Positions 28,201 to 34,200 are shown, numbered from the stretch's first letter. The stretch is 64,000 nucleotides of DNA from Escherichia coli (GCF_036507355.1 NZ_AP027877.1), one strand, 5' to 3'. Numbers: made by a program.

Positions 28201-31200
28201 CCAACGCTGAAACGAGACAAGTATAATCGTACAAATTAGCGCCACAATTGTCACGATAACCCCGACGCCTGGATCTGTCATCGGTGTTGGAGATATCAGA
28301 TGTTGAATACCCGTCAAAAACAGGAATAGTGCTGAACCGGAGATAAACATACTTTGCGCCAGCGCCGCGAGGGACTCAGCTTTACCGTGACCAAACGAGT
28401 GATTATCGTCGGCAGGTTGCAGGGAATATCGCACCACCAGTAAATTCGTCAACGACGCGCCGATATCCACCAGCGAATCCACCAGCGCGGCGAGAATACT
28501 CACCGACCCGGTATACCACCATGCAAAAATTTTAATCAGCAATAGCAGCGAAGCCATCGCCGTCGCAGCAATCGCCGCCCGACTGACCAGCCGTCCATAA
28601 GATTGATTCATAAATACTCCCGCTATCAACTGACGCTAGTATAACGGAAGCAAATCATCTGCAATGCATTAAGCAGCAGGCAAATTGAGGATAAAAAAAA
28701 CCCCCACATCATGTGGGGGAAGACAGGGATGGTGTCACAAAAAAGCACCTAACCTGATGATATAAATGGATTTATGTCAACCGCTGTCCACATAGCGTCC
28801 ACATCGTTCAGCGTCCGTTTAATCGGACGCTTTTAAATTTTTATTTTTCCCAGCAGAAAAATTAGCTTTCCCGCTGTTTTGCAACTCAACAAGAGGAGAT
28901 AACCGTCGGTAAACAGCCAAAAGTATCTTTAACTGAACCAGTTCATCTGCCCCCGATAGTTGAACCAAGTTTTTACGTTGTTCTTCACTAAGTGCCATCA
29001 CAGATTCAAGTGATTTAACTGCGTCAGAAACAAGTTCAATCTCTTTAATTTGATTCTGTATACGCAGCTTCTCTGATTTCAACTTTGCCCATTCTCTTTG
29101 TCGATATGTACGCATCACCTGATCGTAAACTTTGTTGGCAGCCAGAATACTTCCACCAACAGCAGTAACTAACTCAGCAATCTGCCAAGAGATATCAATA
29201 AGAGCAGACAATTCAATAAAGCCAGGAGAGGCATACTGAATTTTTTTCACTACAGGACGTAAATCTGGTGGAGTCGCACTGTAAGCCCCTCTAAAAAAGT
29301 TCACCACACTGTGCCCACCCTCCCAAGGCATTGTTGAATATCCTCTTGATCCTCCTTTTAGGCGCTGAATTTACAATCCAAGTGCAACAAAAAAAGAAGT
29401 ACTCATCAACTAGAATATAATTTTGTTTCCACACAAAAACCACTTCCAAATGATGAGTACTTCCTACCGACATCTTACAATAAACGAGCGAGAAAAGATA
29501 ATGATTTTACTCGCACAGGGCAAAAAACAAGCAGAAATTGCCAAAGCACTGGGACGTAGCTCCAGCACCATTTCTCGCGAGCTGAAACGACACGCTCTAG
29601 AAAGCTACAGTGCAACGAACGCACAAAACAGCTATTTGAAGCATCGTCAAAATAGCAAAGCACAGCGCAAATTAGAGCAGCCTGAATATTTCAATTTGGT
29701 GCAAGAAAAGTTTCTGACAGAAAACTGGTCGCCCGAACAAATCAGCGCACGATTAAAATTGGAAAAATCTGAATTATCCATTAGTTATTCAACCATTTAT
29801 CGTGGTATTTATTCAGGGTTGTTTGATATAGGCGAACGCAAAGCCAGTCGCAAACTGCGCCACAAAGGCAAAACACGGCATACAAAAAATCATCATGAAA
29901 AACGTGGCAAAATTCAGATATCCAACCATTTGAACGACCGTCCCATTTCGGCGCAAAATCGCAGTCGCTTTGGACATTGGGAAGCCGATACCGTACTGGG
30001 TAAAGCGGGTGGAGCTTGTTTGCTGACGCTGACGGAACGCAAAAGTCGTTTTGAGTTGGTGAAGAAAATTCCTGCCAAAAAAGCCGAAGCAGTCCAAAAA
30101 GCCATGATTGAATTGCTGGATTCACATATATTGCGGTCAATTACGCCAGACCGTGGTAAAGAATTTGCCCAACATCGTTTGGTAACAGAAGCACTGGGTG
30201 TAGAATTTTACTTCCCCGAGCCGCATCAACCGTGGACACGGGGAACGAATGAAAATACAAATGGGTTACTTCGTGAATACTTTCCGAAGCACCAAGACAT
30301 CAATCAGTGGAGCGAAGTTGATATTCAACAGGTGATCAATAAACTGAATTTACGACCACGTAAATGTTTAGGTTGGAAAACACCTTATGAAGTTTACTTC
30401 AAAAAATCGTTGCACTTGGTTTGACAATTCAAGGCCATAAAAAAAACCATATAGCTGCAAATACTCTTTCGTTAAGACCGCGAAATCAGCTAACTCCCAA
30501 CGATTATCAAGCTCAATTATAACTTTTTCCATTTTCCACCAACCTGTCCAACTTTAAAGATTGACTTTTAAGTATATGATAAACATAGTTTATTAAACGT
30601 GATCCACTACTTTTAATGAAGAATATTCCCCAAAACAGAAAGCCCCTCGACTGAGGGGCTTTCTGTTTGTAATTACATCCACATAATTTGCTGCCCTGAC
30701 GGCAACGGGTGCGGTCTTACGGCGTGGACTTCTCCCGGCTTGTCCAGGGTAATGACATTTTCTTTGTTCATGGTTTTCTCACTTCTGAATCAGGGTTAAC
30801 CGGCCAGCCAGGCTGACCGGATGAAAATCACAGGCCGATATTGCGGCGGTGTTGCTCCAGCCGGTCGACGCCGTTCACCTTCTCAATCATGTTGATGGTG
30901 TCAATTTCGACCAGCTCCTTACCGTCCATCGTCAGCCGGAAATAACCCATTTTTCACCGGCACGAGCCTTCGGTTTGCAAGGATCACGCAATTCAATAAT
31001 TGGTAATTTATTTGCCTTCACCATTTCACTGACGGCTGTCTTTGGCTTCCCTAATAAATCAGCAAATTTATCCACATGAACCGCATCAAGCGGATACTGA
31101 ATCACATAATTTTCAGCGTCCATATATGGTACCCTCATAGGATCCAGCCCTTTCTAAACCACTCAAAACCGTTTAGACGCTGGTTTATTCTCAAATCAAT

Positions 31201-34200
31201 GGAACCTATATAGGTTCCAGTTTTGAGGGAATTTAGTCCCTATATAGGCACCATGTCAAATGAAATTAAGCGAAAAGATTAAGGCCTTGCGTGAGGCTGA
31301 AGGGCTAAGCCAATCAAAATTCTGTGAAATCATAGAGTTACCGCTAAGCACACTTAAAAAATATGAAGGAGGAAACTTTGAACCCGGTGGCACAGCTTTG
31401 CTAAAAATCACTATGCATCCCACATTCCAAAAATATGCTCTATGGCTTATGACAGATAAAACCGCGCCGGACGCAGGACAAATCGCACCGGCTCTCGCGC
31501 ACATTGGGCCAGAGTCAACAGAGTCCAACCACTCCGAGAAAAGGATTGGATAACTCTATATAAAGATTACATTTTCACCATTTGCTACCAAGATGGTGAA
31601 TACAGCGCCGGAGGGCTTTCTTATGGCAATTAAGAAGCTCGATGATGGTCGCTATGAAGTGGACATTAGACCTCGCGGTCGCGACGGAAAACGCATCCGC
31701 AGGAAATTCGAAAGAAAAGCTGAAGCACTAGCATTTGAGCGATACACAATCGCCAATGCCAGTCAGAAAGAATGGGGAGGCCAGCGAGCAGACCGCCGGA
31801 CTTTGAGTGAGTTGCTGGACATCTGGTGGAAATATCACGGGCAAAACCACGAGCATGGAACAAAAGAGTTTAATCATCTACTCAAAACCATCAGCGGCAT
31901 AGGTGATATACCAGTGAACAGGATGAGCAAAAGGGCTTTGATGGATTATCGTTCCATGCGACTACGTGATGGTATCAGTGCCGCAACGATAAACCGTGAC
32001 ATGTACCGATTATCCGGCATGTTCACAAAATTAATTCAATTGGATGAATTTTCCGGGCAACACCCAATTCACGGACTGCCGCCACTGGCGGAGGCCAACC
32101 CTGAAATGACGTTCCTGGAAAAAGCAGAAATCGAAAAACTGTTAAATGTTTTGGCTGGTGATGACTTACTTGTCGCGCTTTTATGTCTGAGCACTGGAGG
32201 AAGATGGACGGAAGTTGCCACGCTAAAACCAGCACAGATTACAAATTGCAGGGTTACCTTCCTGAAAACCAAAAACGGTAAAAAGCGAACCGTGCCGATT
32301 TCTGAGGGACTGGAGAAAAAAGTTAAAGAGGAGGCCAGCGCCAAATTATTCAAAGTTGATTATGAGAAATTTTGCGGGATTTTACGCAGAGTGAAACCTG
32401 ATATACCACCCAATCAGGCAACCCATATCCTGCGGCATACATTCGCAAGCCATTTCATGATGAATGGGGGCAATATAATCGCACTGCAACAGATTCTGGG
32501 ACATGCGAGCATTCAGCAGACGATGGCCTATGCGCACCTTGCGCCTGACTATCTGCAAAATGCCGTCGCTCTGAATCCACTAAAAGGCGGAGTGACGTTA
32601 TAAATTTCCCCCTCTGAGTGTCCACATAGTGTCCACACTCAAGAAATTTTGAAACCGCTCCAAACCCTTACAGCTTTCGATAAGTACCTGTTTTTACTTT
32701 TGATTGCATGTAAGTAATTGATAAAAAAAACCCCCACATCATGTGGGGGAAGACAGGGATGGTGTCTATGGCAAGGAAAACAGGGTTTACTACTGGGAAC
32801 GTGAGTTGCTACTACTCAATAGCTTCAACGATGAACTTTTTTGCCATTGCGTCACGTCGCGCAACTGCTCCATTCGTTGTTGATGTTTCTCGTTTAAAAC
32901 CGCTTGCTGCTCCGGCGTTAACAGGCGATACATTTGGTTGCGGACTTTTGCCATCTCAACCTGACGAGCAATTTGCTCATTCGCCATTTTTTCTGCCTGT
33001 GCGCGCACAGCGTTTTCATCAAAATTTTCTGCGGTGACAAGGCGATGCATTGTCTCCAGTTCGCTAACATTAACAGGAGGCTGTTCGTGCCGGGCCTGTT
33101 GCATAAGATCTCGCATCTGCTGACGCTGATGTTCGGTTAAACTTATGCCGTCGAACATATGGCTCTGCGTACTGCGCTGCGTAAGTTCTTCACCCGGATG
33201 CCAGTTATCGCCTGAACCGACTTCAGCAGCGTGGCTTAATGAACTGACTGCCAGCGTTGAGGCCATGACGGCAGTGGTAACTATGCGCATCATTTGCTCC
33301 CAAAATCTTTCTGTCGCGATTCAACGATAGAGAGTTTACGATTCAGGCTGCAAACATGCGTCAGGGGGTGTAAAACAACGTAAAGTCATGGATTAGCGAC
33401 GTCTGATGACGTAATTTCTGCCTCGGAGGTATTTAAACAATGAATAAAATCCTGTTAGTTGATGATGACCGAGAGCTGACTTCCCTATTAAAGGAGCTGC
33501 TCGAGATGGAAGGCTTCAACGTGATTGTTGCCCACGATGGGGAACAGGCGCTTGATCTTCTGGACGACAGCATTGATTTACTTTTGCTTGACGTAATGAT
33601 GCCGAAGAAAAATGGTATCGACACATTAAAAGCACTTCGCCAGACACACCAGACGCCTGTCATTATGTTGACGGCGCGCGGCAGTGAACTTGATCGCGTT
33701 CTCGGCCTTGAGCTGGGCGCAGATGACTATCTCCCGAAACCGTTTAATGATCGTGAGCTGGTGGCACGTATTCGCGCGATCCTGCGCCGTTCGCACTGGA
33801 GCGAGCAACAGCAAAACAACGACAACGGTTCACCGACACTGGAAGTTGATGCCTTAGTGCTGAATCCAGGCCGTCAGGAAGCCAGCTTCGACGGGCAAAC
33901 GCTGGAGTTAACCGGTACTGAGTTTACCCTGCTCTATTTGCTGGCACAGCATCTGGGTCAGGTGGTTTCCCGTGAACATTTAAGCCAGGAAGTGCTGGGC
34001 AAACGCCTGACGCCTTTCGACCGCGCTATCGATATGCACATTTCCAACCTGCGTCGTAAACTGCCGGATCGTAAAGATGGTCACCCGTGGTTTAAAACCT
34101 TGCGTGGTCGCGGCTACCTGATGGTTTCTGCTTCATGATAGGCAGCTTAACCGCGCGCATCTTCGCCATCTTCTGGCTGACGCTGGCGCTGGTGTTGATG

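Follow-up and report, generated by a model that had tools for sequence, protein, structure and literature searches.

We analyzed a stretch of 64,000 nucleotides (nt) of Escherichia coli DNA (GCF_036507355.1, NZ_AP027877.1), hereafter the window, which carries a 4-kb element between the genes fieF and cpxP. With a probability of about 0.95, this element is a decayed P2-family prophage of the Wphi/L-413C integration class (genus Peduovirus) that sits at the cpxP terminator and the small RNA (sRNA) CpxQ. The assignment draws on comparisons with phage genomes and with other E. coli genomes, and none of the evidence that we found contradicts it. The original prediction, made from the sequence of the window alone, had proposed a P2-like prophage that integrated at CpxQ and its terminator and was later reduced to about 4 kb. 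This is borne out by the matches of the integrase (Int), the repressor C and Cox to phage proteins, by the identity of the attachment core to that of known phages and by genomes in which the site is empty. The element is of an already known kind: it belongs, in decayed form, to a phage lineage that has been well described, and placing the bacterial attachment site (attB) at the 3' end of an RNA gene is standard design. Its significance lies mainly in annotation, as one more decayed occupant of a polymorphic P2-family site.

The element is bounded by a perfect 47-bp repeat, GATAAAAAAAACCCCCACATCATGTGGGGGAAGACAGGGATGGTGTC, which occurs exactly twice in the window, at 28690–28736 and 32720–32766. 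Both copies are on the plus strand in direct orientation, differ at no position and are spaced 4030 bp from start to start. A repeat search returned the pair as the longest direct repeat of the region, with the identity ending at exactly 47 nt, and no copy was found in 100 dinucleotide-preserving shuffles, even with three mismatches allowed. The repeat is thus exactly as predicted in coordinates and spacing. The accompanying description of the left copy as a partial duplicate is incorrect, as the two 47-mers are equivalent core copies, neither of which is more partial than the other. To the left of the island lie pfkA and fieF (minus strand) and to its right cpxP (minus strand), cpxR and cpxA. 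The cpxP-side core (32720–32766) is the int-proximal junction and the fieF-side core (28690–28736) the ogr-proximal one. The minus strand of each copy forms a hairpin followed by a run of T, and both score as intrinsic terminators on that strand. The cpxP-side core lies 23 nt from the cpxP stop codon (32790–32792, minus strand), and core and spacer together reproduce the cpxP 3' region of K-12 with one loop nucleotide differing.

The exact 47-mer is present between int and ogr in phages Wphi and L-413C (at 2738–2784 and 3277–3323, respectively, of the phage stretches compared), where it is the core of the phage attachment site (attP). Both junctions of the window are collinear with the flanking arms of attP in these two phages, including the arm-type repeats. 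On the ogr side, the P arm (28737–28818) contains the Int arm-type repeat TGTCCACATAGCGTCCACA at 28785–28803 and is collinear with the attP of Wphi and L-413C up to ...TCCACATCG. On the int side, the P' arm (32604–32719) contains the arm-type repeat TGTCCACATAGTGTCCACA at 32619–32637, which belongs to a direct-repeat family common to both arms, and is collinear with the attP of L-413C. The core is therefore flanked on both sides by repeats of the form TGTCCACATAG(C/T)GTCCACA, positioned as in Wphi and L-413C and of the P2 type, the published consensus of which is tgTGGaCa (PMC3448106). The layout as a whole matches the annotated attP of P2, which runs ogr, terminator, P arm, IHF site, core, Cox sites, P' arm, int. 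On the ogr side, the window departs from Wphi and L-413C only by a cargo gene between the ogr terminator and the P arm, a position that is vacant in the two phages.

This attachment site is already documented for the Wphi class and is not new. Table 2 of the E. coli W genome paper gives the cpxP-fieF interval as the insertion site of the P2-type prophage Wphi1, with the site empty in K-12, B and Crooks, and it also lists P2-type prophages at the sRNA genes rybB and cyaR (PMC3032704). The integration site of Wphi had been identified earlier, and the attP core of L-413C was found to be the same, with one MG1655 coordinate given for both phages (PMC3448106). The published status of the site rests on these two papers; in Salmonella Infantis, a prophage of 31.7 kb located between fieF and cpxP has been described in a 2026 preprint. 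The original prediction had presented an sRNA 3' end used as attB as notable. Given the publication of the Wphi site and the precedents at rybB and cyaR, this is an already known pattern. In the limited collection of literature searched, we found no link between CpxQ and a phage integrase or attachment site.

Next to the cpxP-side junction lies an intact P2-type tyrosine integrase of 326 amino acids (31623–32603, plus strand), which matches the integrase family PHROG 1 with E = 2e-81. It is full length, the catalytic HxxR...H...Y motif is visible in its sequence, and it is 99.1% identical to Int of L-413C, 98.2% to that of Wphi and 51.7% to that of P2 (E = 1e-121). It is preceded by an intact immunity repressor C of 97 amino acids (31260–31553, plus strand; PHROG 147, transcriptional regulator, E = 3.9e-39), with identities of 99% to L-413C, 57% to Wphi and 43% to P2. 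The divergent cox gene is truncated: the first 66 of 95 codons (30945–31138, minus strand) survive within an open reading frame (ORF) at 30932–31138, and the last 29 residues are gone. What is left matches the PHROG Cox-like excisionase at positions 1–60 of the 90-position profile (E = 1.5e-25), and residues 1–66 are 97%, 72% and 46% identical to Cox of L-413C, Wphi and P2, respectively. All three proteins thus have the significant similarity to P2 that had been supposed for them. Cox and C are separated by the Pe/Pc switch region (31139–31259), which is marked by inverted CCTATATAGG repeats with a putative operator role and occupies the position of Pe in the P2 annotation. A promoter-like site, TTGACA-18-TAAATT, on the minus strand (31259..31230) abuts the start of C, as Pe does in P2. 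At the DNA level, the element matches 103 phage records, mostly of Peduovirus. The contents listed in the original prediction, namely an integrase, a C-like repressor, a divergent Cox-like ORF, ORF fragments, a hairpin, an IS30 element and a 170-amino-acid ORF, are all present, with the correction that Cox is reduced to 66 of its 95 residues.

Integration would have taken place by Int-mediated site-specific recombination between the attP core of a temperate phage and an identical 47-bp attB spanning the cpxP terminator. Because the final 44 nt of CpxQ are repeated in the phage core, the int-proximal junction would rebuild the cpxP 3' untranslated region (UTR) with CpxQ and its terminator, while the displaced core copy would end up next to fieF.

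Deletions, site occupancy and rival explanations

Between cox and the P arm, the phage genome is present in pieces. The 'short ORF fragments' and the palindromic terminator noted earlier do exist, and they can now be identified as remnants of the tail tube gene, gene E and ogr and as the terminator of ogr. A 210-bp fragment (30735–30944, minus strand) comprises the 3' end of FII, the major tail tube gene, followed by a spacer and codons 1–10 of tail gene E; in the E423 and 4/2-1 prophages, the tail tube/E region matches it with 97–99% identity. It runs into a chimeric ORF (30672–30770, minus strand), which joins the first 10 codons of gene E to the last 22 codons of ogr and whose translation reads MNKENVITLD from the former and KPGEVHAVRPHPLPSGQQIMWM from the latter. 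Behind it follows the ogr or F-operon terminator hairpin (30633–30668, minus strand), with a perfect 16-bp stem. Wphi and L-413C have this GCCCCTCGACTGAGGGGC hairpin behind ogr as well, and in P2 a terminator is annotated there. The tail tube identity of a 40-amino-acid fragment in this region (30828–30950, minus strand) rests on the RefSeq annotation of its parent as the major tail tube protein and on gene order, as it precedes gene E. PHROGs labels the same fragment 'head closure' (phrog_55, phrog_13676), which looks like an annotation conflict in that database.

The two abrupt joins can be read against the full-length P2-like prophage that strain 4/2-1 carries at the same site, with the same cargo gene next to ogr; the window island maps onto it with two deletions. 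At the first junction, the 7-bp microhomology CCGGCTT (30735–30741) links codon 10 of gene E with codon 51 of ogr, and about 4.7 kb are missing in comparison with 4/2-1. At the second, at 30944, codon 66 of cox is joined to the 3' end of the tail tube gene and about 29 kb are missing. Tail tube, gene E and ogr fragments are all that is left of the late (head, tail and lysis) and replication genes. As the complete set is missing, the element is a remnant and not a functional prophage. Its decay would have comprised the deletion of about 29 kb behind cox, the deletion of about 4.7 kb at the microhomology and the transposition of the insertion sequence (IS) ISApl1 into the 213-amino-acid cargo gene between the ogr terminator and the P arm. 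The phage DNA that survives amounts to about 2.9 kb and includes both attachment junctions with their arm sites, intact int, intact C with the switch region, and the gene fragments.

The remnant probably still confers immunity to L-413C-type P2 phages through C and its switch region. It is probably also unable to excise by itself and locked in place unless a related phage supplies Cox, because Cox, the excision factor according to the P2 annotation, is truncated, while Int is intact. Having neither a cos site nor a replication gene, the remnant cannot propagate.

We surveyed 5,426 complete E. coli genomes for occupancy of the site. The empty-site query was synthetic, composed of the fieF side, one core and the cpxP side, and had to match from end to end. 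It did so in 4,593 genomes (85%), including K-12 MG1655, in the annotation of which cpxP, cpxQ and fieF are adjacent. K-12 thus has a single core copy and lacks the 4 kb, in line with the original prediction, which had also called for such a survey. The objection foreseen there, a lineage devoid of empty-site alleles, does not hold. The junction of int, core and cpxP was found in 791 genomes (~15%), and the insert between cpxP and fieF is therefore a common presence/absence polymorphism. Other wrecks stand at the same site. The nearest to the window island is that of strain PSS-08-1, with the cargo gene, ogr, C and int and a different internal deletion; in ETEC6333 cox is fused to the tail sheath gene, and TW14425 retains several fragments together with IS66 elements. 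As these remnants differ from one another, decay at this site is recurrent and independent. The two deletion junctions of the window island were found together in none of the 5,426 genomes, nor did any other genome show the same whole configuration or the same position of ISApl1. Hence, we infer rather than observe the order of events and the precise ancestor.

A compact unit with intact int and C, both attachment junctions and a cargo gene could also be a small autonomous integrative island or a phage satellite that shares its integrase module with P2-like phages. We regard this as highly improbable and have rejected it. Such an island would not be expected to contain out-of-context late-gene fragments and a truncated cox, joined abruptly (once at a 7-bp microhomology) and mapping onto a full prophage at the same site. 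Furthermore, neither the ORF map nor the NCBIfam and PHROG profile searches revealed any gene for replication, mobilization or packaging hijack, in other strains the same prophage has been partly deleted in different ways, and a unit with this configuration recurs in 0 of the 5,426 genomes. The idea that E. coli originally carried the insert at this locus and that K-12-like genomes lost it deserves practically no credence. It has nothing in its favor beyond the presence of the insert in the window, and it is refuted by the 4,593 empty sites with one core and by free phage genomes that carry the core as attP. Moreover, in one assembly a circular phage record of 32 kb has the core with 45 of its 47 nucleotides.

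If the element is accepted as a decayed Wphi/L-413C-type prophage, one may still ask whether its remains have been kept by selection, either for C-mediated immunity or because the duplicated CpxQ 3' module or the terminator affects fieF or transcripts from the phage side. We consider this unlikely, if less so than the two readings above. Int and C have stayed intact among otherwise broken genes, several independent remnants at the site likewise keep int and C, and the fieF-side core is a predicted terminator downstream of the cargo gene. However, the retention of int and C may reflect no more than the terminal location of these genes in the prophage, ISApl1 has inactivated the cargo gene, and the exact remnant is unique among the genomes searched.

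The cargo gene and its interruption by ISApl1

The gene between the ogr terminator and the P arm encodes 213 amino acids and is split in the window. Its 3' part (28819–29363, minus strand) is 100% collinear with the intact gene for WP_000416606.1 of strain PSS-08-1. Its 5' part, codons 1–34 (30432–30532, minus strand), which was delimited from the ORF map and the PSS-08-1 comparison, runs into the IS. The 'orphan 170-aa gene' of the original prediction is not a gene of its own: the ORF at 28819–29331 starts at an internal methionine, Met44, and corresponds to codons 44–213 of the split gene.

The intervening 1068 bp (29364–30431, plus strand) are ISApl1, with the transposase at 29450–30424 (NCBIfam transpos_IS30, E = 3.3e-92). 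The IS30-family assignment made earlier is thereby confirmed. The PSS-08-1 allele lacks these 1068 bp and otherwise matches the window, with 100% identity up to 29363 and from 30432 onwards. The sequence AGGC is found at both ISApl1 junctions, which fits an IS of 1070 bp with a 2-bp target duplication, and the repeat search showed the ends of the IS to be terminal inverted repeats. This copy is the single one in the window and is 100% identical over 1068 bp to copies on plasmids of E. coli, Klebsiella, Actinobacillus and Pasteurella, from which it differs in being chromosomal, single and located inside a prophage remnant. Some of the identical plasmid copies adjoin a PAP2 gene. Between 28,500 and 33,000, the stretch examined for this purpose, there is no second ISApl1 and no mcr-1/pap2 or other resistance gene beside ISApl1. 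ISApl1 is the IS that mobilizes mcr-1 in Tn6330, and its chromosomal copy marks past exposure of the strain background to this mobilizer.

The intact cargo protein matches the PADLOC profiles for PD-T4-10_B with E = 1.3e-34, 7.1e-23 and 3.2e-19, and has no match in Pfam, NCBIfam or PHROGs. In the two-gene toxin-antitoxin system PD-T4-10, which aborts infection by T-even phages (PMC9519451, Vassallo et al. 2022), PD-T4-10B is the toxin. The cargo gene was considered as a PD-T4-10 system and rejected as such. No ORF resembling a PD-T4-10A partner exists between the ogr terminator and the start of the intact gene, and no conserved upstream partner stands beside its distant homologues. Its relatives are stand-alone genes of ~210–235 amino acids in cassette-like arrays of Vibrio and in a Pseudomonas prophage. 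The cargo gene is itself a stand-alone relative of the defence toxin PD-T4-10B, the system of which protects against T-even phages (PMC9519451), but it differs from that system in having no A-like upstream partner. In the window it is dead, being split by ISApl1. An intact copy is present in 159 of the 5,426 genomes and, in two of the stretches compared, spans 1720–2361 and 4083–4724; a tblastn search of 50,697 phage records did not find the gene.

The position between ogr and attP can thus hold a stand-alone PD-T4-10B relative, and other occupants exist. Record NZ_JBQJRQ010000002.1, circular, 32 kb long and annotated as a plasmid, is the P2-like phage genome with 45 of the 47 core nucleotides mentioned above. 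Between its attachment site and ogr it carries a different hypothetical gene of 215 amino acids (2718–3365 of the stretch examined). The difference in gene content suggests that the interval between the attachment site and ogr is a variable cargo spot. The circular form of the record suggests that relatives of the element can excise.

CpxQ and the attachment core

CpxQ is complete in the window. By the K-12 annotation (ncRNA cpxQ, b4716) it is a 58-nt non-coding RNA that starts 9 nt after the cpxP stop codon, which places it at 32723–32780 on the minus strand, with one nucleotide of the terminator loop differing from K-12. Of its 58 nt, 44 (76%) lie inside the core, and the share is the same in the attP of the Wphi class. 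The core of a long-known site thus coincides with the later-discovered CpxQ, and in lysogens it is the phage that provides the 3' two-thirds of CpxQ along with the terminator. From the rebuilt sequence, we infer that the insertion would have changed neither CpxQ nor CpxP.

The differing loop nucleotide, at position 32739 of the window (core position 28 in the sense of CpxQ), is A in the window and C in K-12. A is also found in the phages and in the majority of the empty sites (roughly 3,200 of 4,593), while C is shared by K-12 and roughly 1,400 genomes. We considered whether the A allele might be a footprint of past lysogeny and rejected this, since A is the majority allele where the site is empty. 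For the same reason, the two core copies of the window are identical. The lysogen 4/2-1 is more informative: its cpxP-side core has the phage allele A and its fieF-side core the host allele C. As these hybrid cores differ at position 28, strand exchange must have taken place upstream of that position (in the sense of CpxQ), and it follows that the CpxQ terminator of 4/2-1 is phage DNA. The 4/2-1 alleles show reciprocal exchange within the core.

The displaced copy of the module lies in sense orientation downstream of ogr and the cargo gene. The fieF-side core is a predicted minus-strand terminator, and no terminator of the cargo gene's own is predicted on that strand before it. In intact lysogens, the transcript of the cargo gene may therefore end in the CpxQ-derived hairpin. 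The part of CpxQ carried by attP is said, on the strength of work by Chao & Vogel in 2016, to include the second conserved base-pairing region and the Hfq-binding terminator. In lysogens and in the course of lytic growth, phage transcripts that end in such a module might give rise to a chimeric sRNA of the 3'-derived type, which would compete for Hfq or act on the targets of CpxQ; if true, this would link phage gene expression to the envelope stress response. We regard the idea as quite improbable. The RNA ending at the fieF-side core (28690–28759, minus strand) has a predicted fold of -24.4 kcal/mol (z = -3.0), in which the phage P arm (AGGUG...CAGG) pairs with and masks the single-stranded stretch derived from CpxQ; the fold of the native CpxQ 3' UTR is predicted at -17.4 kcal/mol. 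Both this masking and the interruption of the upstream cargo gene by ISApl1 in the window count against a chimeric sRNA.

No Rfam family was assigned to CpxQ at the gathering score. The core drew no Rfam matches other than those of the Hrs1 model (RF02628) on the opposite, plus strand, which are sub-threshold and lie at 32723–32795 (44.5 bits) and 28693–28759 (31.8 bits), the gathering score being 56.4. Hrs1 is an Hfq-regulated sRNA of Erwinia, and the model may be the reverse complement of a CpxQ homologue.

Comparison with known systems and other features of the window

The window element shares with coliphage Wphi and the Yersinia/E. coli phage L-413C the identical 47-bp core, both arms of attP, an Int that is 98–99% identical and the chromosomal site, and its C and Cox are of the L-413C immunity type. 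It differs from both phages in the truncation of cox and ogr, in the loss of all structural and replication genes and in the extra cargo gene split by ISApl1. With P2 it has in common homologous proteins, the order ogr, terminator, P arm, core, P' arm, int, C and divergent cox, and the convergent Pe/Pc promoters. In contrast, P2 integrates elsewhere with a core of 27 bp, its Int shares no more than 52% identity, and it belongs to another immunity class.

The ogr-D' remnant at cyaR in K-12 and the P2-like prophages at rybB are likewise located at the 3' end of an sRNA gene (PMC3032704). The K-12 remnant, however, keeps the ogr-D' end of the prophage, whereas the window element keeps the int-C end and both attachment junctions. 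In phages 186 (tRNA-Ile), Fels-2 and SopE-phi (both ssrA), the core also duplicates the 3' part of an RNA gene, the gene is rebuilt upon integration, and int adjoins the rebuilt copy (PMC3448106). The target in the window differs from these in being an sRNA derived from the 3' UTR of an mRNA and equipped with an intrinsic terminator, and the integrase is of the P2 arm type and not of the 186 type.

Elsewhere in the window, the Rfam search returned several elements at the gathering score: three naRNA4 (REP-type) matches (35523–35600, 44445–44515 and 44537–44607), two ES036 matches (5520–5561 and 26447–26488) and a SECIS element (55297–55355). Rfam also reported a ClpQY promoter element at 11205–11262 and an L31 leader at 6541–6593.

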